Source of the DNA: an uncultured Candidatus Saccharibacteria bacterium
GTDB taxonomy: Bacteria; Patescibacteriota; Minisyncoccia; Phycocordibacterales; UBA5272
Direction: 5' to 3'
Assembly (NCBI GenBank): GCA_964369115.1
Contig: CAYJED010000004.1
Coordinates: forward strand, 16,428 to 80,427
DNA length: 64,000 nucleotides
Positions 10,311 to 64,000 of this stretch are shown here, one piece after another. The number at the start of each line of letters is the position of its first letter. Positions within the stretch are counted from its first letter, which is position 1. Position numbers and translations under genes: made by a program. The notes under the pieces were generated by a model, which was not told the DNA's origin, searched no databases, and was given only the letters and a program-made list of their open reading frames with translations.

Positions 10311-10315
10311 AAACT

Positions 10316-34992: not shown

Positions 34993-35044
34993 CAAAAACA
35001 ATAACTCATTATCGTGGTAAAATACATATAAGTTATAGAACTTT

Positions 35045-36011: not shown

Positions 36012-36042
36012 TTCATCATAAAAATGATAAAATATAACTATA

Positions 36043-38809: not shown

Positions 38810-39325
38810 ATGAGTACAAATACAAAAAAGATTTGCAAATACTGTAAATCTGAAATCATTTTGTCTGCTAAAAAATGTCCACAATGTCAGTCGGACCTTC
38901 GTAACTGGTTTGTAAGACACTGGATTATTTCAATACTTATCGGACTTGTTGTTCTTGGAATAATAGGATCAGGATCAAACAAAAATACAACGACTGATAG
39001 TTCAAAAATACCGCAAGGATCAACTGAAAAACAATCAGGTAAACAATATGTAGAGGTGGTGAGGTTTAGTGGAAAGGGTCAGAAAAGTTCAGAACCTTTC
39101 AAGATCAGTGGAAGTAGGTTCAAAGTTACTTACGATTGTAAGGGTGACACCGCGACTACATATTGTGGAGCTTTTGCGTATAAAGTCGGTAGCAATATAC
39201 CTCAAGGTGTTATGAATGCCACACAAGCAGTAAAGGATGAAACTGTTATATATGGATCTGGTGAATATTACATAACAGCTAACACAATGGGTGATTTTTC
39301 TATGGTTATTTACGACTATAAGTAA
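38810..39325 (+). CDS. zinc-ribbon membrane protein (identical copy)
   Basis: Exact duplicate of 34477..34992. Confidence 0.45.
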   Translation: MSTNTKKICKYCKSEIILSAKKCPQCQSDLRNWFVRHWIISILIGLVVLGIIGSGSNKNTTTDSSKIPQGSTEKQSGKQYVEVVRFSGKGQKSSEPFKISGSRFKVTYDCKGDTATTYCGAFAYKVGSNIPQGVMNATQAVKDETVIYGSGEYYITANTMGDFSMVIYDYK

Positions 39326-39377
39326 CAAAAACAATAACTCATTATCGTGGTAAAATACATATAAGTTATAGAACTTT

Positions 39378-40067
39378 ATGGACGGTAATGAGGACTTCAA
39401 CAAGAGCACATATTGGGTACTTTCTGAACTCAAAGAAGAGAGTTTTGTGCTTTCGGATAACGATCAAGAAATAGAATTTTGTTTTGATGGTAGAAAAAGC
39501 TCACCAGATAAAAAAGTTCAAGATAGGGTGCTTCGTTTTCTCGAGAAAGAAAAAGCTGTTTCCCTTACAGCGTTTTATATAAAACCAAAGCCACTAAAAA
39601 ACCTAACTAGAAATTTTGATACCTATGGGTATGGACCAATTGGATATGATGTAAAACTACTACAGCCGAGATTTGATGAACTGTACAATGAATATTCTGC
39701 TTTCAAGTCAAACAAAAATAATAAAGAGCAGTATCAGTTCAATCTCACTATCTATCACGACAGAGGAACATTTTTTGTTGATGAGAAGAGAAAAATAGAA
39801 TTCAGAAATCTTATAAGACCACTTATTATTGAGATACTGTATAAAGCAAAAGGTAAAGATGTTGCTTCGGATAAAATAAAAACAGGGCTACAGAAAAAAC
39901 TACTGAAAGATGGGCACGTTGATAATATCACAAGTATCATTGACGATATGCGCAAGAGTATAAAAAAGCACCTAAAGATAGATCCTAAAATAGTTCTACC
40001 TGATGGTGTTTCTGGTCCTGGTTACAGAATTGGAGATATCGAAATCAATATTGTAAGAGAAAAATAG
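39378..40067 (+). CDS. hypothetical protein (identical copy)
   Basis: Exact duplicate of 35045..35734. Confidence 0.4.
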   Translation: MDGNEDFNKSTYWVLSELKEESFVLSDNDQEIEFCFDGRKSSPDKKVQDRVLRFLEKEKAVSLTAFYIKPKPLKNLTRNFDTYGYGPIGYDVKLLQPRFDELYNEYSAFKSNKNNKEQYQFNLTIYHDRGTFFVDEKRKIEFRNLIRPLIIEILYKAKGKDVASDKIKTGLQKKLLKDGHVDNITSIIDDMRKSIKKHLKIDPKIVLPDGVSGPGYRIGDIEINIVREK

Positions 40068-40375
40068 ATAAGACCTTGTAGGTATGGTGTGAATTATCAT
40101 ACTGAACAGCTTACTTTGTAACGGTTTCTGAATTCCTATAAGGTCGTAATGGGTATGTAATAGGCCCATACATATTTCCTACAATGTTTTTATGACGCTC
40201 GAAGAGTTCATAAAAACAATAGGCAAAGAAGCGGATGGACTATCTCAAGAAGAGATTGAGTTTTACTATACCGTAACAGTAAAAACCTTCGATATATTTT
40301 TTGATAGATACAAGAAAGAAAAAATGTTGGTAGCACACGGATAATTCATCATAAAAATGATAAAATATAACTATA

Positions 40376-42091: not shown

Positions 42092-42125
42092 GAAGCCTGT
42101 GTCCTAGCCGATAGACGATAGGGCC
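42051..42125 (-). tRNA. tRNA-Glu (anticodon CUC), CCA encoded
   Basis: The reverse complement folds as a cloverleaf: acceptor GGCCCTA/TAGGGTC, anticodon stem CAGGC/GCCTG with loop UUCUCAU, T-arm CGGAG-TTCGACT-CTCCG, 3' ACCA. Confidence 0.7.
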
Positions 42126-46964: not shown

Positions 46965-48305
46965 ATGTTAGTAGAAGAGTTTAATAAGATCCTCTTCTCT
47001 AAAAACCCTATGGCAAAAGAAAAGATCATATGGTCTGCAGTTGCTCGCAAACTGCAAGACCTGATCAAAAACGGATACAATCCGCGCAAGTTAAGCGAGA
47101 ACGAACGAAGAGACTTGGAAAGGTCAATAAAGGAATTCGGAACAGTTGTTCCAGTGATCCTCAATACTGGCTCCCGAACCAATATTATTATTGGTGGCGA
47201 ACAACGAGTCAAAGTATATGCCGATCTCGGCATAGCAGAGATTGAGTGCATGATACCCTCCCGAGAGCTAACGCTTGAGGAAGAGCGAGAACTCAATCTT
47301 CGTCTCAACAAGAACACGGGTTCGTGGAATGAAGAACTTCTCAAAGAGTTTGATATGAGCCTGCTTCTTGATATCGGTTTTGGAGATGAAGAATTACAAA
47401 ACCTATTTGATGATGTTGACCTTGTCGAGGATGACTTTAACCTTGAAAAAGCACTCAAGGAAACAATTAAGCCGAAAGTAAAATCAGGAGAAATTTGGGA
47501 GCTTGGGAAACATCGCCTACTTGTCGGCGATTCTACGGATCAGGAACTCGTGCAGAAGCTCATGAACGGAGACTTGGCGGACATTGTGTACTGCGACCCG
47601 CCATACAACATCGGCTTGGACTATTCCAAAGGAGTTGGAAACAAGGAAAAATACCAGGGTTCGTATTCAGGCAAGGACGACTCCAAGAAAGACAGCGACT
47701 ACATGGATTTCTTGGACAAGAGCATGGAAGTGGCAAAAAGTATCAGCAAGAAAAATGCCCACTTCTTCTATTGGTGCGATTCCTCATATCTTTGGATGGT
47801 TCAAACCTTGTATGCAAAACACAAGGTAGATTCCAAGCGTGTCTGCATGTGGATCAAGAACAACCAGAACCCTACTCACAAGATTGCCTTTAATAAAGTG
47901 TACGAGCCGTGTGTATACGGAACGCTCGGCAAGCCATATCTCAATACAGGAATGAATAACACCAACGAGATCCTTAACCAAGAAGTAACCACTGGCAATC
48001 AAGTACACGATGAAATCCTAGACATGATAGATATCTGGATTGAGAAAAGGGACAACGCTCAGTCGTACCAGCACCCTACGCAAAAACCCGTCACCTTAAA
48101 CGAGAAACCATTTAAGCGTTGCAGTTCTCCACTGCATATCATCTACAGCGGATTTGCAGGAAGCGGTAGTGACCTAATTGCCGCCGAAGAACTACATCGC
48201 GTATGGCGTGGCGTTGAGAAAGATCTCATCTTCGCAACCATTGTCATTGACCGATGGGAGAAATTTACCAACCTTAAGGCAAAGAAAATCTATGAAAATA
48301 AATAA
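46965..48305 (+). CDS. ParB-like nuclease domain fused to DNA methyltransferase (DPPY, N6-adenine/N4-cytosine class)
   Basis: N-terminal ParB-like region (...GYNPRKLSENERRDLERSIKEFG..), then the DPPY motif IV (IVYCDPPYN) and, C-terminal to it, an FAGSGS AdoMet-binding motif with HPTQKP. Confidence 0.75.
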   Translation: MLVEEFNKILFSKNPMAKEKIIWSAVARKLQDLIKNGYNPRKLSENERRDLERSIKEFGTVVPVILNTGSRTNIIIGGEQRVKVYADLGIAEIECMIPSRELTLEEERELNLRLNKNTGSWNEELLKEFDMSLLLDIGFGDEELQNLFDDVDLVEDDFNLEKALKETIKPKVKSGEIWELGKHRLLVGDSTDQELVQKLMNGDLADIVYCDPPYNIGLDYSKGVGNKEKYQGSYSGKDDSKKDSDYMDFLDKSMEVAKSISKKNAHFFYWCDSSYLWMVQTLYAKHKVDSKRVCMWIKNNQNPTHKIAFNKVYEPCVYGTLGKPYLNTGMNNTNEILNQEVTTGNQVHDEILDMIDIWIEKRDNAQSYQHPTQKPVTLNEKPFKRCSSPLHIIYSGFAGSGSDLIAAEELHRVWRGVEKDLIFATIVIDRWEKFTNLKAKKIYENK

Positions 48306-51219: not shown

Positions 51220-51669
51220 TTAGATAAAAATCATTAGCAATATACCGACTAGGAATAATGTAAGTGCTTGTTTGTAATCCTTGTTCTTGCCTTCCAAAGC
51301 TTTTGAATTATCATCAAACGCTTTTTGATAATCTGAGAGTAATTGATCTAAAAGGGTTTCAGTTTTCATTGAACGATAATCTTTTGGATCATTATAAAAA
51401 TCCACTACGCCCGTATTATATGTTTTAACTTTCAATGTTTGCCAAAGGAAATATCCAGAAAAGAGCAGAATCATTATCGGTATTACTTGAAGAGCATGGA
51501 TATGATGAAAACTTTGTATGTAGAAAATGAGAATAGCTCCCTCTAGTGGAATCATTACTCCTGCTTTTGCATCAAGTCCGTTATCGGCATTGAGTAAATA
51601 ATCAACCTTGCTTCTTGTTGCATTTACAAGTATTTCTAGTGATTTGGTTTTGTCTTCATGCTCGGTCAT
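51220..51669 (-). CDS. small membrane protein co-transcribed downstream of Type III res
   Basis: 149 aa with two central TM helices and one C-terminal TM helix. Its start overlaps the res stop by 4 nt. Confidence 0.4.
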   Translation of the reverse strand: MTEHEDKTKSLEILVNATRSKVDYLLNADNGLDAKAGVMIPLEGAILIFYIQSFHHIHALQVIPIMILLFSGYFLWQTLKVKTYNTGVVDFYNDPKDYRSMKTETLLDQLLSDYQKAFDDNSKALEGKNKDYKQALTLFLVGILLMIFI

Positions 51670-53960
51670 ATAACATCCTTTAAATTATCCCAACCGTTCA
51701 AGCTCGGAGAGTAAGTATATTTCTTTCCTGAATTGAGTTTCCAACCATTCGGGCCGTCTTGAACAGCAATACCACCAGCTATATTCTTTTTACCTTTGAG
51801 CCATTCTTGCAGCGCCTCGGCTTTGTATTTAGTATCGGCAATTTCAGCAGTAGATCCTTTCTTGGTGTCTACGATCCAAACCTTGTCTTTTGTCTTAAAA
51901 ATCCAATCAGGATAAAAGAGTTTTTCTTTATTCTCGTCAGGGTTGTAGTAAGCAAGCGAGAAATATTCGCTTCCTGAATCACCGTTTTTGTACCACCATT
52001 CAATAGCTTTGTGCTCTTCTAGGAATTTAATGAATTCCTTTTCGTTATCTTCGCCTTTGTAATCTCTCTCGATATAAAACGGAGCCATAGCCGATTTCTT
52101 CACACTCATTTCTTCGTACTGGTCGGTATAGAAAAGACTCTCACGAGGAATCTCAATTTGCTCCGTTCGTTTTGCGCGCTCAGATTTGCGATTTACTTCT
52201 TGTTCACGGATTGGACGATAGACTGCAAGAGCATCACCGATCACAGGAGCGAGAACGCTTGCTTGGTTCAACAGGTCGTTAACGATAATGTTGTAAATAA
52301 CATGGCGTGTTTCTCCTGTATTGTTCAATAACCAAACATTAAGAGCGGTCTTGAGCTTTCCCCATGAACGCTCTGGTGCAAATTTCTTGTTTTCGTCAGT
52401 CTGCTTTGCAATAAGGTTAAAGCAGAATAAGTTGTATAGGCGTTCAAGATCATACTGGGACATTTCTTGATCGTGGCTTCCACCTTCTGCCAGTAGCTCT
52501 TTTGTGAAATTATCATAATCGTCAATTTCCACATTAACGATTAGTCCATTCGTAACTGTTACAGATATATCTAAACCTTTGTCTTTCAGTCGCTTGAGTA
52601 CCTTAGTTTCTTTTTCATTGATTCCAAAATACTTATCTGCTACTTTTTGAAATACGTCTTGGAAAGAATCACCAAGGTCGTTATAGTCGGTACGACTCAT
52701 GAATACGGAATCAACCATAATAGGCTTAACAGATTGCTTGCGGTAACTTCCGTAAATGGCAGGTCGGTTTTGTTCTGTAGATTTAGAGTAACCCGTGATG
52801 ACTTCGTTTCTTTTGTAGTTGGTATAAAGATAACCTAGATTTAATTCTGGCTTTGGAAAATGAAAACCTAGAGGCATACGAAGAATACGGCCAACAGTCT
52901 GAATAGCAAAAGTTGGGTTTTTAATCTCACGGAACATCACAAGCACACTTGCGCGAGGACAATCCCAGCCTGTCGCGGCGGCTTGTTTAAAAAGAAGAAA
53001 TGATACTGGCGAATTGTTTCTCTCGATGTCTTCAAGGTTGATCTTATCTTCGGAAAGCCACACCGCAATCTCATGCTCAAAAACACCTTTTGATTTAAGA
53101 AAGTCAGTTATCAAAGCTTGTTTTGTTACTCCACCTGACTCCTTACTTGCTTTGTCGTCATTTGGAAGCTGTACCAATACGAGAGGGTTCACTTCAACAC
53201 CAATTTCTTTGTAATACGCCACAAGCTCGGCTCGTTTGTTATATGCGAGAGTCAAAAGAATATCGTCCTGATCCATTCCCGCAAATTCTTTTTTAGCCAA
53301 ATCTTCTTCTGTCTGAAAAATAATCTTTTCTTTGATAAGCCCCTCACGCACAACATCGGCACGATTAACGTCTACAGTCACGCCTACTGTTTGCGGGGTA
53401 GCAGAAACACCGATAATAATTCGGGGCTTAATAACATTCTGGATAAGGTCGCTTGCAAGCACCGTGGACGAGGCGATATGTTCCTCGTCGATGATAAGTA
53501 CCACTTCGCGACCTTGCGAGTGTGTAGCTTCAAGATATTCGTCAAAAGTAGTATTCAATTCTCCCTCAGTGCGGAGCTTACGGTTTGTTTGCGCGCGAGA
53601 CACCAACTTCTGCCAGTTTATGAAAAAGACACCGCTTCGAGGGATGCAACCGTCACGGAGATCATTCAAATCAAGGAGCGTATTTTCGCTTGCACCGCCG
53701 TAATATGAAAAAAGTTTGTCTTTGGATTGCATCGCAAGCGAGTCTGAGTTTGTGATCCACAGAAATCCAACGTCAGCATTCTGGAAGCGTGGATCAGAAA
53801 CAATATCGCGGAGAAACTGCGCCATCATAATTGTCTTACCCGATCCAGTTGGAGATTTAAAAGTCAGGTTTAAATTACGATCGCCAAGTTTCCAAAGCGT
53901 CAGGAATTTCTCCTTGAGTTGTGAGATTGCAGTTTCTTGGAATGGTTTAAGTGCGAACAT
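51666..53960 (-). CDS. res: Type III restriction enzyme, Res subunit (SF2 helicase-nuclease)
   Basis: KPFQETAI, Walker A SPTGSGKT, the DEEH box, SAT motif, and helicase motif VI-like QTVGRILR. Confidence 0.8.
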   Translation of the reverse strand: MFALKPFQETAISQLKEKFLTLWKLGDRNLNLTFKSPTGSGKTIMMAQFLRDIVSDPRFQNADVGFLWITNSDSLAMQSKDKLFSYYGGASENTLLDLNDLRDGCIPRSGVFFINWQKLVSRAQTNRKLRTEGELNTTFDEYLEATHSQGREVVLIIDEEHIASSTVLASDLIQNVIKPRIIIGVSATPQTVGVTVDVNRADVVREGLIKEKIIFQTEEDLAKKEFAGMDQDDILLTLAYNKRAELVAYYKEIGVEVNPLVLVQLPNDDKASKESGGVTKQALITDFLKSKGVFEHEIAVWLSEDKINLEDIERNNSPVSFLLFKQAAATGWDCPRASVLVMFREIKNPTFAIQTVGRILRMPLGFHFPKPELNLGYLYTNYKRNEVITGYSKSTEQNRPAIYGSYRKQSVKPIMVDSVFMSRTDYNDLGDSFQDVFQKVADKYFGINEKETKVLKRLKDKGLDISVTVTNGLIVNVEIDDYDNFTKELLAEGGSHDQEMSQYDLERLYNLFCFNLIAKQTDENKKFAPERSWGKLKTALNVWLLNNTGETRHVIYNIIVNDLLNQASVLAPVIGDALAVYRPIREQEVNRKSERAKRTEQIEIPRESLFYTDQYEEMSVKKSAMAPFYIERDYKGEDNEKEFIKFLEEHKAIEWWYKNGDSGSEYFSLAYYNPDENKEKLFYPDWIFKTKDKVWIVDTKKGSTAEIADTKYKAEALQEWLKGKKNIAGGIAVQDGPNGWKLNSGKKYTYSPSLNGWDNLKDVI

Positions 53961-53963
53961 AGA

Positions 53964-55700
53964 TTAAATGCGGTTAATTTCTTTATAAACTTCAAGGATC
54001 GGTTCGGGAATATCTTCGACACGGATAGTCCTCGTAGAATAATCATTCTTATACTCATTCTTACCCCAACCAAAAACATACAGCGTTGTTGGCTGATTTT
54101 TCTTCTCAAGAATCTTTATAATTTCTTTAAGTTTTGTTTTATCTTCCGTGAAATAGATAGCGGTTAACTTTCCGTTACCTTCAAAAATTTGCCACCACTC
54201 ATTTTTATCGACTTCATTTGAGGTGTTTTCTCGGAGTGCGATCATCTCTCCAGCCTGATAAGTAATTTTAATTTTTGCCTCATCAGAAATACGATGTAAC
54301 TTATCTACGTTTACCATATCGGTTTTAAAGTAAGATAAATTCCCACTAAGACCCTCGACTTTCACTCCTTTTCTGTTTTTATATCCTTTAATAACGCGTT
54401 TCAATCGCTCATATGTAACTTCTTCACAGATCTTATTTTCATTATTCGTACAAAGAATAAACTTACGATTACCACCATCTTGTTTATTGAGTTCAAGAAC
54501 GGCATGACCTGTAGTACCAGAGCCAGCGAAAAAATCGAGAATAACAGCATCTCTTTTGTCACTCATAACTCTTAAACTATCCATTACTGCGTAGAGAGAT
54601 TTTGGATAAGAAAATATTTGAAGTTCTGCGAAAATATCTTTTAATAGATTTGTTCCGTAAGCAGTCGAAGAATATTCTTTCTTATCCCACCAAGTCATAG
54701 GCAAAATTCCATCTTCGTTCATTCGTCCCTTTACATAAATCTGAAGTTTGCTTTTTTGTATACGAGATTGAAATTCATCCTGTTCATTCATGAATCTTTC
54801 AATACCCCAACGCCAACGTCTTTGCTTGCCGTCATCATCAATTGGATAGATTATTTCCTCTCCCTTTTTAGGCTTTTCTAATAATTGGTAATCTTCTAAA
54901 TTGTCGTCCCATGTTAATTTAGGCAACCTAATTGAATCTTTGGTTGCAAAGATCGGGTAGTACATTTTTGGAGACTCTTCTCGCATACTTCCGGGCTTGC
55001 GGAAGTTAACCCATTCAAAAGCACCATTCGCGTCTTTTTCATCATATCGGTCAATTTGAGACTGGTTTCTATCAAGTCTGGACACAAAAGCGGATTCTGT
55101 TTTTCCAAAAAAGACGGCATATTCGTGGGTAATAGATATTCCTTTTGTTGTAGATCTGCCCGCTGGATTGTTTCTGATAGGCACAGTTCCTAAATGATTG
55201 AATTCTCCAAAAATTTCTTCCATCAAGAGAATCAGTCTTGAAATTTCATAATCATCAATCGTGACGCAAATTATGCCATTTTCTTTGAGCAAGTTTTTAG
55301 CCAAACGCAACCTCTTTTCCATAAAAGAGATCCACTTGCTATGGCGAAAATTGTCGTTCTTATCTACATAGTCATTGTTGTATCGCCAGTCTGTTGCGCC
55401 GGTATTGTATGGCGGATCCGCGTAAATAACATCGACTGCGCCGCGATGCGTATAGTTCAAAACAGAAAGCGAGTGGTAATTATCTCCCTCGATTAGAATG
55501 TTCGTCGGGAGTGAATTATCAGAAACTAACTTTCTACTTTTAACTTCTTTAAGAAGAGGAATATTCGTCTCGCATTGCAAAACGACATCCTCTGGTTTAT
55601 CTTCCCAGACGAGTCCGTATTTTTTGCGATTCTTTAATTTTTTTATTTCAGATTGTAAATCTGAAATTTGAGCGCGTAGCTCTTTTTCTGTTTGAGACAT
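53964..55700 (-). CDS. mod: Type III restriction-modification system Mod methyltransferase
   Basis: IYADPPYNTG (motif IV) and FFAGSGTTGHA (motif I). 578 aa, immediately upstream of res. Confidence 0.85.
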   Translation of the reverse strand: MSQTEKELRAQISDLQSEIKKLKNRKKYGLVWEDKPEDVVLQCETNIPLLKEVKSRKLVSDNSLPTNILIEGDNYHSLSVLNYTHRGAVDVIYADPPYNTGATDWRYNNDYVDKNDNFRHSKWISFMEKRLRLAKNLLKENGIICVTIDDYEISRLILLMEEIFGEFNHLGTVPIRNNPAGRSTTKGISITHEYAVFFGKTESAFVSRLDRNQSQIDRYDEKDANGAFEWVNFRKPGSMREESPKMYYPIFATKDSIRLPKLTWDDNLEDYQLLEKPKKGEEIIYPIDDDGKQRRWRWGIERFMNEQDEFQSRIQKSKLQIYVKGRMNEDGILPMTWWDKKEYSSTAYGTNLLKDIFAELQIFSYPKSLYAVMDSLRVMSDKRDAVILDFFAGSGTTGHAVLELNKQDGGNRKFILCTNNENKICEEVTYERLKRVIKGYKNRKGVKVEGLSGNLSYFKTDMVNVDKLHRISDEAKIKITYQAGEMIALRENTSNEVDKNEWWQIFEGNGKLTAIYFTEDKTKLKEIIKILEKKNQPTTLYVFGWGKNEYKNDYSTRTIRVEDIPEPILEVYKEINRI

Positions 55701-56004
55701 AGGGGTACAGTTCTATGTCTCGGCTATCCATATTTGGTTTGTATAGAAACGGCAAAGAGGGACAGCCGAGCCTGTACCCCATAATGGTGCTACCCCGAAA
55801 GGTTCCTGTTATGGAACTCGGACTGCCCCTCTTTGCCTATAACAGGTAAGAGAAAACAGTCCTTTCGGGGACGAAGCACTAAATATATAAACACTATGGG
55901 GTACAAATGAACTCTAACATAAAAACACCTCTAAATAAAGGCTTATTTAGAGGTGTTTACCAACAGTCTGGACTTTGCGAGTGCTTCGCGTCATTTAATA
56001 GTAT

Positions 56005-56328
56005 GTGGACGATATTGAGGCCGTTATCAAGGCCAGCCAGCATTTCAAATATGAGGAATCCGAGGTAAGTTATGCTTTCAACAAAGCCTCTGACTTACCG
56101 GAATCTAAGTCGAATCTGAAGCGAGCCATAAAGGAGCGCATTCAGCTTTTGTGCGCTTCATATATTTCACTGGCTTCTTTCTTGCCTGATGAGGATGCGG
56201 AATATTTGCTCGGCCTTCATGGAGAGCAGAAGAAAAAGCGATCAATTAAAATCATGATGCGAATGATGAAAGAAATGGATAAGCTCGAAAAAGAGATCCG
56301 TAATTTTGATCCGTTTTCACCTCTATAA
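56005..56328 (+). CDS. hypothetical protein (GTG start; duplicate at 59374..59697)
   Basis: 107-aa ORF downstream of a 15-bp-stem hairpin. No clear RBS. Confidence 0.25.
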   Translation: MDDIEAVIKASQHFKYEESEVSYAFNKASDLPESKSNLKRAIKERIQLLCASYISLASFLPDEDAEYLLGLHGEQKKKRSIKIMMRMMKEMDKLEKEIRNFDPFSPL

Positions 56329-56419
56329 AAAATTGAGCGGACTCGCTTCGCGAGTAAATGCCAAAGGGTCAAAGAACCCAAGAGTCAAAGAATCAGAAAA
56401 ATACAAAGAGACAACAGGT

Positions 56420-58261
56420 CTAAGATTCAGACTTGCGGAGACGGAACACGAACTCAACGTCCGGAATCCACGCGCTGTCGGGCGACGCCCAACTGCGGCG
56501 CAGCCACAAACCGCCAACGTCGCGTTCGAGGCGGAAGACGTACGGGCTGCCGCCGGAGTCAGCGATTTGCTTCATACCAATACGTACCCATTCATTGAGA
56601 GGTTGATCTTTGTATTTAAGACGATAGTTAGGACCAGTATCAGGAGGACACAACTCCAAGCCAAGCGTTTGTGCGCGTTCGTAAATTTGGTCAGTGGTAG
56701 CGCTTGTCTTGAATCCGAGGTCAGCGACAGTAAGACGGATGAGTGTTGCTTCTTCGCGAGTCTTTCCGGGAATGAAGTCGCGATTTTTCATCATAGACTT
56801 TGCGTAATCAGAAATATTTATGTGAGCCGCTTCCATTTCAGCAATTAACTGTTCAGTAGTCTTGCCTCCGATCTCTACGCTTTCTCTGCGGATTTTCTTT
56901 TCAGGGAATGAAGTGTAGACATGTTCAAGACCTTCCGGCAATTTTTGGAATATGCCTGGTTCAAGCTGTCCGACATAGGCTTTGGTGTCTTTTGTGATCT
57001 GACTTGGCACGTGAGCAATATCTTCTTTTGTACACTCAAAAATAACAAGCATGTCTTCCTCGGTGTTTCGCCCTTTGCGTAGTTCAGCGATACGAGGGTC
57101 TGTCTGATAACCGAACCCTTCAATTGATGAATTGATTTCGTAGAGGAATACTAAATCGTCTTTGGTAAAGGGTTCATCCTGTTCACGCTTCTGGTCGAGA
57201 GCGGTCAGTATTTTCATATCTCCGCTTTTCTTGCGGTACGCATCAGCCTCACCACCAAAGTCTTGGAGTTTTGCATCAAGTGCTTCCTGCATAATTGGCT
57301 CTACGCCCTGATGCGGAAGAATACCTCTCACTTCGCCGATTCTATTGTCGCCCTCCATGCGGATCGCAAGACGAGGTTGGGTTGGTTCGCCGTTTGAATC
57401 ATTCGTGTAATAAACATAAAAGTCGCCATTCTCTATTTGTGTTTCTGCTGTCGATTTACCGGCAGTACACCAACCAGTTCCTTTTCCTTCAAGTGACTCA
57501 AATAATTGTTCGGCATCGCCGCTCTGTCCTTGTTGATATTTTTTCCATTCACCTTTAACTTCCTCGCGGTTCTCCATTGAAGCGGCGAGAGATTTTGAAA
57601 TGAGTTCGGCGTATAAGCTCGGAAACTTTTGAGAAAAGGCTTCGCGGATTTCAGGCTCTTTGAGATTCTTATTGTCTTCTTTTACCTTGAGATAAATATC
57701 AGCAATCTGTGCCAACGGCTCGCGGTAGATATCGGGGTATGGTGCAACAGTACTATCGGTACGCTTTTTGAACTCGCCACGCTCCTTGTCGAACTGTGAA
57801 AGTTTAGTGATATTTTTCCAAACGAAGTACTTGAACCACGCTGGGTACATAGCATCGTCTGAAGTAAGGTACTCCATCCACGCATCAAGCGATGCCCGCT
57901 GATCTTCAATAGCAACATCCATCATTTGTTCACGGACATTGTCAGGAATTTCCTCTACTGCTTGTCCGCGCTCGCGGGCGATGCGTTTCTGTAATTCAAA
58001 ATATGATTCAGGAAAATTCTCCTTCTTTATGATGAACGCATCATATATTTTATCGCGAAACATTTCGAGATTGCGTTCGCGTTTCTTTTCGTCAGGGTTA
58101 AGAAAAACATTCTCCAAGCGATCCATGTATGCCTCGATACGCTCGGCAGGATCGTTCGGCATTTTTTCGCCAGTGTGTCGCTCCTCTCGCACAACTGCCC
58201 GATTTACCTCGGGAGAGGTTTGGAGTTCTGGGCTTTTAAGATGGAGCGGATGTTTTTCCAT
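56420..58261 (-). CDS. DGR target protein with C-terminal CLec-like variable region (copy 1)
   Basis: 613 aa. The C-terminus SGGSPYVFRLERDVGGLWLRRSWASPDSAWIPDVEFVFRLRK corresponds codon-for-codon to the Asn-rich TR. There is no signal peptide. Confidence 0.8.
   Translation of the reverse strand: MEKHPLHLKSPELQTSPEVNRAVVREERHTGEKMPNDPAERIEAYMDRLENVFLNPDEKKRERNLEMFRDKIYDAFIIKKENFPESYFELQKRIARERGQAVEEIPDNVREQMMDVAIEDQRASLDAWMEYLTSDDAMYPAWFKYFVWKNITKLSQFDKERGEFKKRTDSTVAPYPDIYREPLAQIADIYLKVKEDNKNLKEPEIREAFSQKFPSLYAELISKSLAASMENREEVKGEWKKYQQGQSGDAEQLFESLEGKGTGWCTAGKSTAETQIENGDFYVYYTNDSNGEPTQPRLAIRMEGDNRIGEVRGILPHQGVEPIMQEALDAKLQDFGGEADAYRKKSGDMKILTALDQKREQDEPFTKDDLVFLYEINSSIEGFGYQTDPRIAELRKGRNTEEDMLVIFECTKEDIAHVPSQITKDTKAYVGQLEPGIFQKLPEGLEHVYTSFPEKKIRRESVEIGGKTTEQLIAEMEAAHINISDYAKSMMKNRDFIPGKTREEATLIRLTVADLGFKTSATTDQIYERAQTLGLELCPPDTGPNYRLKYKDQPLNEWVRIGMKQIADSGGSPYVFRLERDVGGLWLRRSWASPDSAWIPDVEFVFRLRKSES
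56432..56564 (-). repeat. DGR variable repeat VR (copy 1)
   Basis: The reverse complement matches TR 58554..58686 at 110/133 positions; all 23 mismatches are opposite TR adenines. Confidence 0.85.
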
Positions 58262-58553
58262 ATATGGTTCGCATTATAGCATAAATTACTGCGAAATAAA
58301 GAGGTTTTTGGTATACTATTTTCAGATTGGTTTCATTGAACGGCTACGGTTTTTCAAGACCAATTTACTTCATGTAGATTGAGAGCGCGAACGGTTACGG
58401 CTTTTCGCGGAGGATGTGCATTGAGGTCTTTAAAAAGAAAAAACTTGGTGCGACGCGCTGGTTGATTTTCGATCACGCATAACGATACAGCACGGCTTCT
58501 GGCATATCATGTGCGCTTAAGTCGGCGGTGAGATGGATGGCGTGCCGCACAAA

Positions 58554-58686
58554 CGCTGACTCCGACGGCAACCCGAACGTCTTCAACCTCGAACGCAACG
58601 ATGACGGTTTGTGGCTGAACAACAATTGGGCGAAACCCGACAACACGTGGAATCCGGACAATAAGTTCGTGTTCCGTCTCCGAAAC
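58554..58686 (+). repeat. DGR template repeat TR (copy 1)
   Basis: Non-coding AAC-rich repeat (translating as ...SDGNPNVFNLERNDDGLWLNNNWAKPDNTWNPDNKFVFRLRN), followed by a hairpin ccgcgac..gtcgcgg. Confidence 0.85.
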
Positions 58687-58710
58687 TATTTTCTTTTCCG
58701 CGACCTCATG

Positions 58711-59121
58711 TTACATGTCGCGGTTTTTCTTTTCAGGGTTGGCAAGATTTTTCTTCCAACCGCCAAACATCTTGCCAACTTCTTCGAGTTTCAATGCAAC
58801 GCTCTCACAGTGAGCGTTTGAAATAAGCTTGCCCTCCCATGCAACAGAAACAAGAAACTTTAGTGTGTCTAACACCAAAATACACTCATTAATTTTCTCC
58901 TCTTTCTTATCTTTTTCTATAAAATAGGCAATGTATGACAATTCAAGCAGATCGAGAAACTTGTTCTCAATTCGTGAGCCAATTGTATAGCGTGCCCCTT
59001 TAGCAATATGCGGAACAATATTAACCCAAATCAAATAGCCCTCTTTAATCCTGTTGAGAATCGAGGCGTTGTTGGTGTGCGAAAGTCGGGGGGGGGGGGG
59101 GAGATTAGTAGCTCGGTTCAT
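58711..59121 (-). CDS. avd: Avd-like four-helix-bundle accessory protein (copy 1)
   Basis: About 130 aa with HIAKGARYTIGSRIENKFLDLLELSYIA...LEEVGKMFGGWKK, resembling the Avd/23S-rRNA-IVS four-helix-bundle family. A poly-C run (14 nt) encodes PPPP near the N-terminus. Confidence 0.6.
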   Translation of the reverse strand: MNRATNLPPPPRLSHTNNASILNRIKEGYLIWVNIVPHIAKGARYTIGSRIENKFLDLLELSYIAYFIEKDKKEEKINECILVLDTLKFLVSVAWEGKLISNAHCESVALKLEEVGKMFGGWKKNLANPEKKNRDM

Positions 59122-59211
59122 ATCTACAATAATATCATTTCTGTCGAAAACTTACTCGTCGCATGGCGAGAATTCCTCCATGGAAAACGGACTGCCCCTC
59201 TTTGCCTATAA
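59008..59211 (+). pseudogene. truncated 5' fragment of the DGR reverse transcriptase (copy 1 of duplication)
   Basis: Identical to the first 60 codons of the 62377.. ORF (...ENLLVAWREFLHGKR), then interrupted by the duplication junction. Confidence 0.6.
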
Positions 59212-59373
59212 CAGGTAAGAGAAAACAGTCCTTTCGGGGACGAAGCACTAAATATATAAACACTATGGGGTACAAATGAACTCTAACATAAAAACACCTC
59301 TAAATAAAGGCTTATTTAGAGGTGTTTACCAACAGTCTGGACTTTGCGAGTGCTTCGCGTCATTTAATAGTAT

Positions 59374-59697
59374 GTGGACGATATTGAGGCCGTTATCAAG
59401 GCCAGCCAGCATTTCAAATATGAGGAATCCGAGGTAAGTTATGCTTTCAACAAAGCCTCTGACTTACCGGAATCTAAGTCGAATCTGAAGCGAGCCATAA
59501 AGGAGCGCATTCAGCTTTTGTGCGCTTCATATATTTCACTGGCTTCTTTCTTGCCTGATGAGGATGCGGAATATTTGCTCGGCCTTCATGGAGAGCAGAA
59601 GAAAAAGCGATCAATTAAAATCATGATGCGAATGATGAAAGAAATGGATAAGCTCGAAAAAGAGATCCGTAATTTTGATCCGTTTTCACCTCTATAA
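59374..59697 (+). CDS. hypothetical protein (duplicate of 56005..56328)
   Basis: Exact duplicate. Confidence 0.25.
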   Translation: MDDIEAVIKASQHFKYEESEVSYAFNKASDLPESKSNLKRAIKERIQLLCASYISLASFLPDEDAEYLLGLHGEQKKKRSIKIMMRMMKEMDKLEKEIRNFDPFSPL

Positions 59698-59788
59698 AAA
59701 ATTGAGCGGACTCGCTTCGCGAGTAAATGCCAAAGGGTCAAAGAACCCAAGAGTCAAAGAATCAGAAAAATACAAAGAGACAACAGGT

Positions 59789-61630
59789 CTAAGATTCAGA
59801 CTTGCGGAGACGGAACACGAACTCAACGTCCGGAATCCACGCGCTGTCGGGCGACGCCCAACTGCGGCGCAGCCACAAACCGCCAACGTCGCGTTCGAGG
59901 CGGAAGACGTACGGGCTGCCGCCGGAGTCAGCGATTTGCTTCATACCAATACGTACCCATTCATTGAGAGGTTGATCTTTGTATTTAAGACGATAGTTAG
60001 GACCAGTATCAGGAGGACACAACTCCAAGCCAAGCGTTTGTGCGCGTTCGTAAATTTGGTCAGTGGTAGCGCTTGTCTTGAATCCGAGGTCAGCGACAGT
60101 AAGACGGATGAGTGTTGCTTCTTCGCGAGTCTTTCCGGGAATGAAGTCGCGATTTTTCATCATAGACTTTGCGTAATCAGAAATATTTATGTGAGCCGCT
60201 TCCATTTCAGCAATTAACTGTTCAGTAGTCTTGCCTCCGATCTCTACGCTTTCTCTGCGGATTTTCTTTTCAGGGAATGAAGTGTAGACATGTTCAAGAC
60301 CTTCCGGCAATTTTTGGAATATGCCTGGTTCAAGCTGTCCGACATAGGCTTTGGTGTCTTTTGTGATCTGACTTGGCACGTGAGCAATATCTTCTTTTGT
60401 ACACTCAAAAATAACAAGCATGTCTTCCTCGGTGTTTCGCCCTTTGCGTAGTTCAGCGATACGAGGGTCTGTCTGATAACCGAACCCTTCAATTGATGAA
60501 TTGATTTCGTAGAGGAATACTAAATCGTCTTTGGTAAAGGGTTCATCCTGTTCACGCTTCTGGTCGAGAGCGGTCAGTATTTTCATATCTCCGCTTTTCT
60601 TGCGGTACGCATCAGCCTCACCACCAAAGTCTTGGAGTTTTGCATCAAGTGCTTCCTGCATAATTGGCTCTACGCCCTGATGCGGAAGAATACCTCTCAC
60701 TTCGCCGATTCTATTGTCGCCCTCCATGCGGATCGCAAGACGAGGTTGGGTTGGTTCGCCGTTTGAATCATTCGTGTAATAAACATAAAAGTCGCCATTC
60801 TCTATTTGTGTTTCTGCTGTCGATTTACCGGCAGTACACCAACCAGTTCCTTTTCCTTCAAGTGACTCAAATAATTGTTCGGCATCGCCGCTCTGTCCTT
60901 GTTGATATTTTTTCCATTCACCTTTAACTTCCTCGCGGTTCTCCATTGAAGCGGCGAGAGATTTTGAAATGAGTTCGGCGTATAAGCTCGGAAACTTTTG
61001 AGAAAAGGCTTCGCGGATTTCAGGCTCTTTGAGATTCTTATTGTCTTCTTTTACCTTGAGATAAATATCAGCAATCTGTGCCAACGGCTCGCGGTAGATA
61101 TCGGGGTATGGTGCAACAGTACTATCGGTACGCTTTTTGAACTCGCCACGCTCCTTGTCGAACTGTGAAAGTTTAGTGATATTTTTCCAAACGAAGTACT
61201 TGAACCACGCTGGGTACATAGCATCGTCTGAAGTAAGGTACTCCATCCACGCATCAAGCGATGCCCGCTGATCTTCAATAGCAACATCCATCATTTGTTC
61301 ACGGACATTGTCAGGAATTTCCTCTACTGCTTGTCCGCGCTCGCGGGCGATGCGTTTCTGTAATTCAAAATATGATTCAGGAAAATTCTCCTTCTTTATG
61401 ATGAACGCATCATATATTTTATCGCGAAACATTTCGAGATTGCGTTCGCGTTTCTTTTCGTCAGGGTTAAGAAAAACATTCTCCAAGCGATCCATGTATG
61501 CCTCGATACGCTCGGCAGGATCGTTCGGCATTTTTTCGCCAGTGTGTCGCTCCTCTCGCACAACTGCCCGATTTACCTCGGGAGAGGTTTGGAGTTCTGG
61601 GCTTTTAAGATGGAGCGGATGTTTTTCCAT
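59789..61630 (-). CDS. DGR target protein (copy 2, identical)
   Basis: Identical 613-aa product, VR included. Confidence 0.8.
   Translation of the reverse strand: MEKHPLHLKSPELQTSPEVNRAVVREERHTGEKMPNDPAERIEAYMDRLENVFLNPDEKKRERNLEMFRDKIYDAFIIKKENFPESYFELQKRIARERGQAVEEIPDNVREQMMDVAIEDQRASLDAWMEYLTSDDAMYPAWFKYFVWKNITKLSQFDKERGEFKKRTDSTVAPYPDIYREPLAQIADIYLKVKEDNKNLKEPEIREAFSQKFPSLYAELISKSLAASMENREEVKGEWKKYQQGQSGDAEQLFESLEGKGTGWCTAGKSTAETQIENGDFYVYYTNDSNGEPTQPRLAIRMEGDNRIGEVRGILPHQGVEPIMQEALDAKLQDFGGEADAYRKKSGDMKILTALDQKREQDEPFTKDDLVFLYEINSSIEGFGYQTDPRIAELRKGRNTEEDMLVIFECTKEDIAHVPSQITKDTKAYVGQLEPGIFQKLPEGLEHVYTSFPEKKIRRESVEIGGKTTEQLIAEMEAAHINISDYAKSMMKNRDFIPGKTREEATLIRLTVADLGFKTSATTDQIYERAQTLGLELCPPDTGPNYRLKYKDQPLNEWVRIGMKQIADSGGSPYVFRLERDVGGLWLRRSWASPDSAWIPDVEFVFRLRKSES
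59801..59933 (-). repeat. DGR variable repeat VR (copy 2, identical to copy 1)
   Basis: Offset of 3369 from VR copy 1. Confidence 0.85.
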
Positions 61631-61922
61631 ATATGGTTCGCATTATAGCATAAATTACTGCGAAATAAAGAGGTTTTTGGTATACTATTTTCAGATTGGT
61701 TTCATTGAACGGCTACGGTTTTTCAAGACCAATTTACTTCATGTAGATTGAGAGCGCGAACGGTTACGGCTTTTCGCGGAGGATGTGCATTGAGGTCTTT
61801 AAAAAGAAAAAACTTGGTGCGACGCGCTGGTTGATTTTCGATCACGCATAACGATACAGCACGGCTTCTGGCATATCATGTGCGCTTAAGTCGGCGGTGA
61901 GATGGATGGCGTGCCGCACAAA

Positions 61923-62055
61923 CGCTGACTCCGACGGCAACCCGAACGTCTTCAACCTCGAACGCAACGATGACGGTTTGTGGCTGAACAACAATTGGGC
62001 GAAACCCGACAACACGTGGAATCCGGACAATAAGTTCGTGTTCCGTCTCCGAAAC
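61923..62055 (+). repeat. DGR template repeat TR (copy 2)
   Basis: Offset of 3369 from TR copy 1. Confidence 0.85.
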
Positions 62056-62079
62056 TATTTTCTTTTCCGCGACCTCATG

Positions 62080-62490
62080 TTACATGTCGCGGTTTTTCTT
62101 TTCAGGGTTGGCAAGATTTTTCTTCCAACCGCCAAACATCTTGCCAACTTCTTCGAGTTTCAATGCAACGCTCTCACAGTGAGCGTTTGAAATAAGCTTG
62201 CCCTCCCATGCAACAGAAACAAGAAACTTTAGTGTGTCTAACACCAAAATACACTCATTAATTTTCTCCTCTTTCTTATCTTTTTCTATAAAATAGGCAA
62301 TGTATGACAATTCAAGCAGATCGAGAAACTTGTTCTCAATTCGTGAGCCAATTGTATAGCGTGCCCCTTTAGCAATATGCGGAACAATATTAACCCAAAT
62401 CAAATAGCCCTCTTTAATCCTGTTGAGAATCGAGGCGTTGTTGGTGTGCGAAAGTCGGGGGGGGGGGGGGAGATTAGTAGCTCGGTTCAT
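62080..62490 (-). CDS. avd: Avd-like accessory protein (copy 2)
   Basis: Identical to copy 1. The G14 tract lies at 62457..62470. Confidence 0.6.
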   Translation of the reverse strand: MNRATNLPPPPRLSHTNNASILNRIKEGYLIWVNIVPHIAKGARYTIGSRIENKFLDLLELSYIAYFIEKDKKEEKINECILVLDTLKFLVSVAWEGKLISNAHCESVALKLEEVGKMFGGWKKNLANPEKKNRDM

Positions 62491-63480
62491 ATCTACAATA
62501 ATATCATTTCTGTCGAAAACTTACTCGTCGCATGGCGAGAATTCCTCCATGGAAAACGGAGCCGTAAAGATGTAGCCCAATTTTCAGTGCATCTGACCGA
62601 TAATATACTTGCCCTTCATCGTGAACTCGTTGATAAGACCTACCATCACGGTCCATACAAAGCTTTTCGTATCAACGATCCTAAGCCGCGCGATATTCAT
62701 AAGGCGAGTGTTCGTGATCGGTTACTTCACCATGCTATTTATAGAATTTTGTATCCATATTTTGATCCTAAATTTATTTTTGATTCATACTCATGTCGTC
62801 GTGGCAAAGGCACGCACCGTGCGCTTGATAGATTCCGAGACTATGCGCGCAAAGTTTCTAAAAATCATATCCAAACGGTGTGGGTGTTAAAGTGCGATAT
62901 CAGAAAGTTTTTTGCAAACATTGATCACAGAATTTTGGAAGATATTTTGAAACTCAGGATGGGAGATGAAGATGTGATACGGCTTTTCAGAGAAATAGTC
63001 GGCAGTTTTAATACCAAAGACAAACACGGTGTCGGTCTCCCTCTTGGCAATTTGACGAGCCAGCTACTAGTAAACATTTATATGAATGAGTTTGATCACT
63101 TTCTCAAGCGAGATTTGAAAATTAAATACTGCGTCAGATATGCGGATGATTTTGTTATCCTGCATAAAGACAAAAAATATTTAGAAAGTGTCTTGCCAAA
63201 AATCTCTGCATTTTTAGAGACAAGGCTCAAGCTTTCTCTGCATCCCGATAAGGTATTTATAAAAACATTCGCTTCGTGCGTGGACTTTCTTGGTTGGGTG
63301 CATTTTCCGCATCATCGCGTACCGAGGACATCAACAAAAAAGAGAATGTTCAGAAATTTAAATCAAAACCCAAAAAAGGAATCACTAAGTTCCTATGCTG
63401 GACTTCTGAGTCACGGCGATACACATGAATTACGAGAGACGATATTTGAGCGGTATTCAGACAATAAGGAGAAAAACTGA
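62377..63480 (+). CDS. DGR-type reverse transcriptase (5' boundary uncertain; ORF overlaps avd on the opposite strand)
   Basis: RT motifs: RINDPKPRDIHKASVRDRLLHHAI (1-2), LKCDIRKFFANIDH (3), GLPLGNLTSQLLVNIYM (4, the DGR-type SQ variant), YADD (5), LHPDK (6), FLGW (7). Confidence 0.8.
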   Translation: MRNNINPNQIALFNPVENRGVVGVRKSGGGGEISSSVHIYNNIISVENLLVAWREFLHGKRSRKDVAQFSVHLTDNILALHRELVDKTYHHGPYKAFRINDPKPRDIHKASVRDRLLHHAIYRILYPYFDPKFIFDSYSCRRGKGTHRALDRFRDYARKVSKNHIQTVWVLKCDIRKFFANIDHRILEDILKLRMGDEDVIRLFREIVGSFNTKDKHGVGLPLGNLTSQLLVNIYMNEFDHFLKRDLKIKYCVRYADDFVILHKDKKYLESVLPKISAFLETRLKLSLHPDKVFIKTFASCVDFLGWVHFPHHRVPRTSTKKRMFRNLNQNPKKESLSSYAGLLSHGDTHELRETIFERYSDNKEKN

Positions 63481-63554: not shown

Positions 63555-64000
63555 ATGAAAACAACAGCACCAATTGGCTACGAAATGACCCAAGTAGTCC
63601 AAACGCCAATAAAAGCACGATATTGCCTCTATGCCCGTAAATCGACGGAATCAGAAGAAAGACAAGTCCTTTCAATAGATTCACAGATCAAGGAAATGTT
63701 ACAGCTCGCAGAAAGAGAAGGCCTTGAGATTGTGGCAATGAAAAGAGAGTCCCACTCTGCCAAAGAGACAGGGCAACGACCCGTGTTCAATGAAATAATC
63801 GAAGAGCTCAGACAAGAGAAATTCAATGCGATATTAACTTGGGCACCTGATCGAATTAGCAGAAATGCCGGTGACTTGGGAAAGATAGTGGATCTCATGG
63901 ATGCAGGTAAGCTACTTCAAATACGGACATTTGGGCAAACATTTTCTAATAATCCCAATGAGAAGTTCCTCTTAATGATCCTCGGATCGCAGGCAAAGCT
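63555..64000 (+). CDS. serine recombinase (resolvase-domain N-terminus), 3' partial at window end
   Basis: MKTTAPIGY...YCLYARKSTESEERQVLSIDSQ...LTWAPDRISRN shows the catalytic Ser motif and the start of the resolvase fold. The ORF runs off the window. Confidence 0.7.
   Translation, partial: MKTTAPIGYEMTQVVQTPIKARYCLYARKSTESEERQVLSIDSQIKEMLQLAEREGLEIVAMKRESHSAKETGQRPVFNEIIEELRQEKFNAILTWAPDRISRNAGDLGKIVDLMDAGKLLQIRTFGQTFSNNPNEKFLLMILGSQAK

Follow-up and report, generated by a model that had tools for sequence, protein, structure and literature searches.

The right-hand end of the window (the whole stretch of DNA analysed, 64 kb in length) carries genes for a reverse transcriptase (RT), for Avd and for a 613-residue target protein, together with a TR/VR repeat pair, as listed in Table 1. 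Most of these features are present twice. An offset-3369 identity scan and self-megablast consistently showed the two units to be 100% identical, with a period of 3369 nucleotides. The initial annotation left this duplication unremarked: the TR and VR that it cited belong to copy 1, and the sole intact RT gene follows copy 2. Two further perfect tandem duplications are found elsewhere in the window. The RT gene is followed by the start of a large serine recombinase gene, a match to the recombinase encoded after the RT in two related loci, L001 and L087.

Table 1. Coordinates of features at the locus, numbered from the first nucleotide of the window.
Feature	Coordinates	Strand	Remarks
Tandem unit, copy 1	55819–59191		Features as in copy 2, each 3369 nucleotides lower
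Target, copy 1	56420–58261	−	
VR, copy 1	56433–56564		Within minus-strand target
TR, copy 1	58551–58685	+	
avd, copy 1	58711–59121	−	
RT 5′ stump	59008–59211	+	67 aa; closes copy 1
G14 repeat, copy 1	59088–59101		
Tandem unit, copy 2	59188–62560		100% identical to copy 1; adjoins intact RT
Conserved ORF	59374–59697	+	107 aa, from ORF list; downstream of target, opposite strand; uncharacterized
Target, copy 2	59789–61630	−	613 aa
VR, copy 2	59802–59933	−	Target codons 567–609
Conserved structured RNA domain	61800–61919	+	5′ of TR; 45-locus alignment, covariation
A-rich block of RNA domain	61800–61813	+	
Helix A	61817–61828 with 61908–61919	+	12 bp; abuts TR
Hairpin B	61832–61843	+	
Helix C	61859–61867 with 61888–61895	+	
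TR, copy 2	61920–62054	+	Adenine-bearing sense strand; adjoins intact RT
GC-rich hairpin	62067–62102	+	CCGCGAC / 12-nt loop / GTCGCGG, then TTTTTCTTTT; from sequence
avd, copy 2	62080–62490	−	136-aa longest ORF; conserved core from ~aa 20
RT	62377–63480	+	367-aa longest ORF; conserved core from ~aa 38–40, at 62494
G14 simple-sequence repeat, copy 2	62457–62470	+	In ~70-nt head-to-head avd/RT core spacer
Large serine recombinase, 5′ part	63555–64000	+	From translation; runs off window end; island context

The RT reading frame is intact and contains all the expected motifs, and its translation has GLPLGNLTSQ as motif 4 and YADD as the catalytic motif, exactly as quoted in the initial annotation. 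It matches Pfam RVT_1. Its best match in the PDB, spanning the full length with E = 2.7e-44, is 8ub7_A, the brt protein of Bordetella phage BPP-1; the best group II RT in the same comparison is well behind (E = 3e-21), as are the retron RTs. In the alignment with Brt, LGNLTSQ is matched by IGSLTSQ, which is the SQ-type form of motif 4 ([I/L/V]GxxxSQ). Judged by the best PDB match and this motif, the RT is of the DGR (diversity-generating retroelement) type. The presence of an Avd gene close to the TR is confirmed by Pfam, where avd scores 45.4 bits against bAvd (cut-off 40); its score against NCBIfam DivGenRetAVD is 58.8 bits, below the cut-off of 80.

The TR and VR had been described as a 133-nucleotide alignment with 23 mismatches, all at template adenines. 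A gapless alignment of TR 58554–58686 with the reverse complement of VR 56432–56564 gives 24 mismatches, 23 of them at template adenines (13 A>G, 5 A>T and 5 A>C). The restriction to adenines therefore stands and the 133rd column does not: the remaining mismatch is a C/G in the last column, the first base beyond a repeat that is 132 nucleotides long with 23 of 23 mismatches at TR adenines. Extending the repeat by three nucleotides at its 5′ end (58551–58685 and 56433–56567) gives 135 nucleotides and 24 of 24, and the probability that all 24 would land on the 40 adenines of the TR is 2.6e-16, in agreement with the earlier reading of the pattern as a DGR signature. The quoted TR and VR peptides, the 613-residue target, the 136-residue avd frame and all the strands are also as described when the sequence is re-read. 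Of the 24 mismatches, 22 affect the first or second position of a codon, and AAC and AAT codons are abundant in the TR. Among 95 homologs, codon entropy within the VR is approximately 3 bits where the codon is templated by AAC or AAT, and approximately 0.2 bits elsewhere. The additional 5′ A>T (AAC in the TR, ATC in the VR, Ile566) is invariant in 95/95 homologs; it is therefore a fixed difference, and the working VR comprises codons 567–609. These are not the last 43 codons of the target gene, as had been stated, since four more (KSES) come after them. TR and VR share an A-free 18-mer, GTTCGTGTTCCGTCTCCG, after which they diverge (CAAG in the VR, AAAC in the TR); as a sequence pattern, this is consistent with an IMH/IMH* boundary. 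The block is not directly followed by a GC-rich inverted repeat, the nearest hairpin being approximately 95 nucleotides away. In Wu et al. (2018, PMC5758913), such repeats follow the IMH in only 34% of DGRs.

The target consists of an uncharacterized N-terminal part (approximately residues 1–420) and a C-terminal domain (residues 425–613) that carries the VR. Sequence searches of Pfam, NCBIfam and the PDB gave no match for the target, Pfam gave nothing meaningful for nine divergent members of its family, and an exact-sequence lookup returned no record. The predicted structure of the last 189 residues is a divergent C-type-lectin (CLec) fold with a pLDDT of 95.7, as the initial annotation had expected for this C-terminus, and the model confidently places the VR within that fold. 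The closest known systems include the structurally solved CLec-fold variable proteins of DGRs, namely Treponema TvpA (2y3c) and Mtd (1yu0), and CLec domains of the FGE/EgtB type. The target is a soluble cellular protein of uncharacterized function, and its family comprises more than 5,400 sequence clusters of uncharacterized Patescibacteria proteins; where the source is named, relatives of both target and RT are almost all from Patescibacteria. The model thus ties a large uncharacterized family to a confident, divergent CLec fold, and backs the published expectation that unannotated VR domains in CPR are new CLec variants.

The TR is flanked by conserved RNA structure on both sides, which the initial annotation had not noted. 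On its 5′ side, an alignment of 45 loci analysed with RNAalifold has compensatory changes in 20 of the 32 pairs of the domain, and pair counts give 92.3% paired, compared to 25–45% in slid controls; none of 500 shuffles reached the observed values. No Rfam family matches there. On its 3′ side, 10–15 nucleotides past the TR, 59 of 64 sequences have a hairpin that leads into a T-run; its 5′ arm covaries and takes 49 distinct forms, and its tail is TTTTTCTTT. In the window, its 12-nucleotide loop contains the avd stop codon. From its sequence and by analogy, this hairpin may be terminator-like, a putative Avd-binding stem–loop of the DGR RNA, or both. The analogy is with BPP-1, whose DGR RNA carries an Avd-binding stem–loop right after the TR and, bordering the TR on its 5′ side, a duplex described as cPRT Stop (Handa et al., 2024 preprint). 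Both the 3′ hairpin and the TR-abutting helix A covary; helix A pairs two segments that both lie upstream of the TR, whereas the BPP-1 duplex pairs upstream with downstream sequence. This covariation-supported map around the TR of an architecture B3 element helps to carry the ribonucleoprotein model of BPP-1 over to CPR elements.

We then compared the window with independently assembled contigs that are 99.3–99.6% identical to it, and found that they differ from it almost only in the VR, at positions of TR adenines. These positions account for 20 of 20 differences in L089, 24 of 28 in L090, and 10 of 12 in L003–5, which are three contigs from other samples. In all of these contigs the TR is unchanged. 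Variation of the VR at TR adenines among near-identical strains, with an invariant TR, indicates from sequence comparison that the DGR is recently active.

The initial annotation had called the layout unusual. Its description is correct, in that TR and VR are inverted relative to each other, with avd and target on the minus strand and RT and TR on the plus strand. However, the gene order TR-(avd)-RT with avd reversed is the published architecture B3, which is normal for CPR DGRs and accounts for 90% of them (Wu et al. 2018, PMC5758913). In our own set, all 76 related loci with a detected avd have it immediately upstream of the RT and on the other strand, and TR and VR are inverted in 16 of 67. 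The window and the CPR DGRs of Wu et al. (2018) and of Roux et al. (2021, PMC8144416; clade 2) share the same host group, an avd reversed between TR and RT, a cellular rather than phage-borne location, and a VR domain with no CLec signature detectable by sequence. Nothing fundamental differs, and only the perfect tandem duplication is particular to the window. In the portions of the CPR DGR literature that we searched, we found no mention of the conserved 5′ RNA domain or of a repeat tract between avd and RT.

The resemblance to the BPP-1 DGR (mtd-avd-TR-brt) extends to a homologous RT and Avd, adenine-specific mutagenesis, a CLec-fold domain with the VR at its C-terminus, an A-free, IMH-like block closing the TR/VR homology, a duplex abutting the 5′ edge of the TR, and a stem–loop directly beyond its 3′ end. 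The window differs in that avd is inverted and faces the RT gene head to head; most of the conserved accessory RNA structure precedes the TR, where BPP-1 has it in a 140-nucleotide downstream spacer; no GC-rich cruciform follows the IMH; and the target gene is inverted relative to the TR and encodes a soluble cellular protein, whereas the BPP-1 target is a phage tail fibre.

We therefore read the element, with a probability of roughly 0.93, as a chromosomal DGR of the Patescibacteria type with architecture B3, located on a recombinase and restriction-modification island and working by the mechanism proposed below. This reading is backed by data on the A-specific TR/VR pattern, RT and Avd homology, the CLec fold, recent activity, the RNA helices and the hairpin. 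The earlier interpretation is partly supported: it holds for a real DGR, but not for an exceptional layout. The element adds one well-documented, active example to the large CPR DGR clade and leaves the known DGR mechanism unchanged. In the proposed mechanism, a discrete RNA of approximately 300 nucleotides would be transcribed from the plus strand, comprising the structured 5′ domain, the 135-nucleotide TR, a U-rich stretch, and the GC-rich hairpin with its U-run. RT and Avd would reverse-transcribe the TR, misincorporating opposite template adenines, and the cDNA would replace the VR, that is, approximately the last 43 residues of the CLec-fold domain at the C-terminus of the target. Some 20 binding-surface residues would be randomised and the scaffold residues kept fixed. 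Because this exchange depends on homology, the target gene would be free to lie either way relative to TR and RT. Within this scheme, the ends of the transcript, the place of priming, the RNA element bound by Avd or RT, and the role of helix A as a stop for cDNA synthesis are inferred.

An RT derived from a group II intron, a retron or a defence system (DRT/Abi), with a coincidental repeat beside it, might be suggested by the top NCBIfam match, group_II_RT_mat (152 bits), and by weaker matches to Drt3a and retron models, in a library that holds no DGR-RT model. We consider it hardly credible: the scores are far under their cut-offs (152 against 300 for group_II_RT_mat, 57 against 235 for retron_St85), an Rfam scan found no group II intron RNA and no retron RNA, Avd and an A-biased TR/VR pair adjoin the RT, and Brt is far ahead in the PDB comparison, with SQ-type motif 4 in the RT. 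It is also very improbable that the element is a fossil that has stopped diversifying its target, whether a DGR in decay or a repeat diverged in the ordinary way. One RT copy is truncated, neither avd nor RT has an unambiguous start codon, and changes in homopolymer length may disrupt these starts; but the other RT frame is complete, random divergence would not confine 24/24 mismatches to adenines, and near-identical strains differ in the VR while keeping the TR.

The initial annotation also pointed out that a TR-to-RT transcript would be antisense to avd. In the corresponding model, TR and RT are co-transcribed as one long plus-strand RNA, antisense through avd, which serves as template. TR and RT are indeed on the same strand with only avd, on the other strand, between them; a simple promoter scan found no sigma-70-like promoter there for a separate RT transcript; and BPP-1 has an essential Sp RNA downstream of its TR. 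That scan found fewer sigma-70-like sites than in shuffled sequence and none usefully placed, and it overlooked the post-TR hairpin, whose loop is larger than its limit. This hairpin with its T-rich tail has classic intrinsic-terminator anatomy, conserved and covarying across the relatives, and the strongly conserved, covarying RNA domain is upstream of the TR rather than downstream. Since the conserved structured RNA that contains the TR closes with a terminator-like hairpin, no transcript antisense to avd is required, and we judge the long-RNA model improbable, although partial read-through past the hairpin may occur. The two identical cassettes probably stem from an error of assembly or from a very recent duplication. 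A genuine arrangement of two full target/TR/avd cassettes served by one RT, with a microhomology-mediated origin, gains something from a junction within the 12-nucleotide imperfect microhomology ATGGAA[CT/AA]CGGA, from contigs L003–5, which end 16 nucleotides inside the left boundary of the unit, and from the two other perfect duplications in the window, one of them a 4.3-kb unit that encodes a serine recombinase of its own and lies beside a tRNA, where tandem insertion is biologically plausible. It is nevertheless doubtful. Near-identical strains differ at 20–24 VR positions and at 0–4 positions elsewhere, so that two real copies should diverge quickly, yet these are identical even in the VR. 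Moreover, L087 has the same flanks and a single copy, L089 and L090 continue across the left boundary into a MTase gene, the junction 26-mer was not found in JGI metagenome contigs, and three perfect duplications in 64 kb suggest a habit of the assembler.

Duplication by the DGR itself was considered and rejected: the junction joins the RT 5′ coding region to an intergenic spacer through plain microhomology, and the other two perfect duplications in the window are unrelated to it.

The initial annotation did not include the hypervariable repeat between avd and RT. At the same site, relatives have G8–G18 or (GA)n, and close relatives have poly-G lengths of 10, 11, 13, 14, at least 15, and 18, as read from consensus assemblies, where homopolymer errors are common. 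Poly-G phase variation is found at simple-sequence-repeat contingency loci in Neisseria and Campylobacter. These loci likewise have long homopolymer or dinucleotide repeats at the 5′ ends of genes, with lengths that differ among close relatives. A search of the literature for a connection between DGRs and homopolymeric tracts or phase variation returned nothing relevant. A conserved coding role (poly-Pro in Avd or poly-Gly in RT) was rejected, as the lengths of 8–18 do not follow multiples of 3 and the ORFs do not run consistently through the tract. The conserved repeat could regulate the element, and we suggest, as an unlikely idea, that it is a slipped-strand phase-variation switch turning expression of Avd and/or RT, and hence targeted hypermutation, on and off within a population. 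If so, the switch and the upstream structured RNA would define a CPR-specific mode of DGR control. Alternatively, the tract may be no more than a purine-rich element of a promoter or ribosome-binding site.

Finally, the 107-residue ORF downstream of the target, which has no match in Pfam, is also called as a gene in L001, L002, L003–5, L087, L089 and L090.

The element is a genuine, active diversity-generating retroelement (DGR) of the standard Patescibacteria type. The initial annotation identified it correctly, and the peptides, reverse transcriptase (RT) motifs, ORFs and strands that it quoted all match what we find. The RT matches Pfam RVT_1. Among solved structures it is closest to chain A of PDB 8ub7 (E = 2.7e-44, residues 40-360 aligned with 9-323 of 328), which tblastn against annotated phage genomes identifies as Bordetella phage BPP-1 brt. 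In this alignment GVGLPLGNLTSQL lies opposite GVGIPIGSLTSQL and YADD opposite YMDD, with group II intron RTs (3e-21) and retron-type RTs far behind. NCBIfam has no DGR-RT model, and the scores of the RT against its group II, retron and DRT models are all far under their cut-offs. The avd gene, a minus-strand ORF of 136 aa, matches Pfam bAvd over threshold; it also matches the NCBIfam Avd model, but under threshold.

The template repeat (TR, 58554-58686) aligns without gaps to the reverse complement of the variable repeat (VR, 56432-56564), with 24 mismatches in 133 columns. Twenty-three of these are A in the plus-strand TR, replaced in the VR by G (13), T (5) or C (5); the remaining one, C/G, occupies the final column and is the first base outside the repeat. 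The earlier description of 133 nt with 23 mismatches, all at TR adenines, thus holds for 132 nt and fails at column 133, because that column is already beyond the repeat. The homology also reaches 3 nt further 5' (58551-58685 against 56433-56567), with one added A>T. The probability of 24 out of 24 mismatches landing on the 40 adenines of the 135-nt TR is P = 2.6e-16, and 22 of the 24 TR/VR mismatches affect codon positions 1 or 2. At their 3' ends TR and VR have a common A-free 18-mer and then diverge, forming an IMH/IMH*-like boundary; no GC-rich cruciform was found directly after it.

Alignment of 95 target homologs (77-99% identical) gives a C-terminal variability of ~3 bits where the TR codon is AAC, AAT or AAA, and of ~0.2 bits at adenine-free TR codons. 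Ile566 (AAC in the TR, ATC in the VR) is invariant among these homologs, and the working VR is therefore codons 567-609. Contigs that were assembled independently from other samples match the window at 99.3-99.6% identity, and nearly all their differences from it lie in the VR. Contig L089 differs at 20 positions in 4,675 nt, all 20 in the VR at TR-adenine positions; contig L090 has 28 differences, 24 of them in the VR at such positions; and the related loci L003-L005 have 12, of which 10 are in the VR at TR adenines and another is at a TR thymine. All of these contigs carry the TR unchanged. This concentration of differences in the VR is the signature of recent mutagenic retrohoming. The difference at the TR thymine (window 56456), which lies beside mutated adenines, represents a rare non-adenine change.

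What had been overlooked is that the cassette is present twice: 55819-59191 and 59188-62560 are 100% identical, a tandem duplication of period 3369. The unit contains a 107-aa ORF, the VR-bearing target gene, the TR and avd, and it takes in just 184 nt from the 5' end of the RT gene, so that copy 1 ends in a 67-aa RT stump (59008-59211). The junction sits in an imperfect 12-nt microhomology, ATGGAA[CT/AA]CGGA. We think it likelier (probability about 0.7) that the doubled cassette is an artefact of assembly or arose very recently than that it is a stable, genuine duplication, which we regard as rather unlikely. The VR is the fastest-changing part of this lineage, and two real coexisting copies ought therefore to have different VRs; the VRs of the two copies are identical. 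The JGI contig L087 has the same neighbors as the window (ResIII of 764 aa, methyltransferase (MTase) of 578 aa, 107-aa ORF, target, avd, RT and serine recombinase) and carries a single cassette, its two alignments to the window overlapping by exactly one unit. L089 and L090 continue uninterrupted across the left boundary into the MTase gene, and the junction 26-mer was not found in JGI metagenome contigs.

Two further perfect tandem duplications occur in the window. In one (33386-42056, period 4333), three small ORFs make up the unit together with a LOOT RNA and a large serine recombinase. This array looks like two insertions of one mini integrative element, or else like a product of the assembly artefact suspected at the DGR. 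The other (1390-1616) is a duplication of 113 nt with a period of 114, equal to 38 codons, within ORF 882-1619.

The cassette is flanked on one side by a type III-like restriction-modification pair and on the other by a large serine recombinase that passes the window end. Relative to the window, the related locus L001 carries an additional recombinase plus ParB (8320-10588), inserted in the interval from the DGR to the MTase. Since relatives have added recombinase and ParB genes nearby, the cassette lies on a variable island.

Features of the DGR, its RNA and its surroundings
Feature	Position	Remarks
Island context	46965-48305, 51666-55700, 63555-64000	ParB_N-MTase fusion; ResIII helicase/nuclease and N6/N4 MTase; large serine recombinases
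107-aa ORF	59374-59697 (+) and 56005-56328 (+)	Found consistently in close relatives, where it lies downstream of the target and on the other strand
Perfect hairpin, 16 bp	59292-59327	Comes after the 107-aa ORF when read from the target
VR of copy 2	59802-59933	
TR of copy 2	61920-62054	
Sole complete RT	62377-63480	After copy 2
12-bp helix (helix A), predicted	61817-61828 with 61908-61919	3' strand abuts first TR base
Two other predicted helices in 5' block		Small hairpin; 8-bp helix
A-rich block	61800-61813	Invariant
U-rich block	62056-62066	Invariant
LOOT RNA RF03000	34296-34422 and 38629-38755	84.5 bits
tRNA	42054-42125	Adjoins the 33386-42056 array

The gene arrangement had been called unusual, a view that we do not share. 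The order TR-(avd)-RT, in which avd is encoded on the reverse strand, is architecture B3 of Wu et al. (2018; PMC5758913), who state that it makes up 90% of their CPR set. From species-representative genomes, almost all being Patescibacteria MAGs, we collected 80 loci that code for relatives of this RT; avd is directly upstream of the RT on the opposite strand in all 76 loci with a detected avd. Roux et al. (2021; PMC8144416) describe a DGR clade restricted to Patescibacteria. A TR/VR pair was detected in 67 loci, with 1,312 of 1,442 mismatches at TR adenines. In 50 of these loci the target lies upstream in the same direction, and in 9 it lies upstream but inverted, as in the window; the rest have a downstream target, inverted in 7 and co-directional in 1. 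Target orientation therefore varies freely, as expected from homology-directed cDNA exchange.

An alignment of 45 loci showed a conserved block of ~120 nt 5' of the TR, in which RNAalifold predicts three helices. In these, 92.3% of cells are paired, compared to 25-45% with the partners slid, and 188 cells are changed on both sides, compared to 19-42; none of 500 shuffles reached the values observed. On the other side, ~12 nt past the TR end, a GC-rich hairpin leads into TTTTTCTTT. Its window version consists of CCGCGAC, a 12-nt loop holding the avd stop codon, and GTCGCGG; 59 of 64 sequences have the hairpin, and among them are 49 distinct 5' arms, each having a matching 3' arm. No Rfam family covers the TR-flanking region. 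According to the preprint of Handa et al. (2024), the BPP-1 ribonucleoprotein has a stem-loop right after the TR that binds Avd and, at the 5' edge of the TR, a “cPRT Stop” duplex; comparable elements are predicted in 207 of 278 Avd-containing DGRs. In the window RNA a hairpin and a predicted duplex occupy similar places, but both strands of that duplex (helix A) come from upstream of the TR and not from either side of it. We infer that the TR is carried in a discrete structured RNA of ~300 nt, in which the 3' hairpin would be a terminator and/or an Avd-binding element, and helix A would be the stop point of cDNA synthesis, coinciding with the 5' limit of TR/VR homology. Such an RNA would make the TR-to-RT transcript antisense to avd, envisaged in the initial annotation, unnecessary, although there may be partial read-through. 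There is complementarity between an A-rich block (TAAAAAGAAAAAAC) on the 5' side of the RNA domain and a U-rich block (TATTTTCTTTT) that comes right after the TR. Judged by their complementarity, the two could form a long-range duplex around the whole TR; both sides are invariant, hence there is no covariation signal.

The conserved cores of avd and RT are head to head, ~50-100 nt apart, and all 19 aligned junctions (18 loci plus the window) have in this spacer a hypervariable simple-sequence repeat, polypurine when read on the strand of the RT and consisting of either poly-G or (GA)n with n of ~11-16. Poly-G of at least 8 occurs in 32 of 76 loci, ranging from G8 to G18 across the RT clade at a fixed position in a spacer of ~70 nt (window 62457-62470; copy 1 59088-59101). 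Close relatives have G10, 11, 13, 14 (the window), at least 15, and 18, lengths that homopolymer assembly errors may affect, and short-read contigs end at the tract. The lengths have no multiple-of-3 pattern, and ORF continuity over the tract is inconsistent. In the (GA)n loci an in-frame RT ATG follows within a few bases, and the tract may therefore act as a ribosome-binding element; the window has ATT at this position, and the canonical starts of avd and RT are only beyond the tract. A phase-variable or translational control element is possible, a phase-variation switch being a possible but unproven reading of the sequence. A literature search for links between DGRs and homopolymeric tracts or phase variation found nothing relevant.

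The 613-aa target has no sequence match in Pfam, NCBIfam or PDB and no hydrophobic segment. Its whole-protein model is of poor quality over the VR and gave no Foldseek match. An exhaustive search showed the family to be very large and modular, with 5,418 representatives at 50% clustering, many of which have in common only residues 1 to ~420. This N-terminal module (aa 1-420; 60371-61630, minus strand) is common to thousands of proteins and has strongly conserved motifs including GTGWCTAG and EGFGY; neither a Pfam domain nor a confident fold match was found for it. The C-termini joined to it differ and are often far longer (up to 1,585 aa). An 84%-identical homolog in GCA_013815345.1 (locus L006, 6001-7842), for which gene calling gives neither an RT nor an avd within 6 kb, is either an orphan or served in trans. 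It lies among housekeeping genes, with release factor, FtsEX, CTP synthase and seryl-tRNA synthetase as its neighbors.
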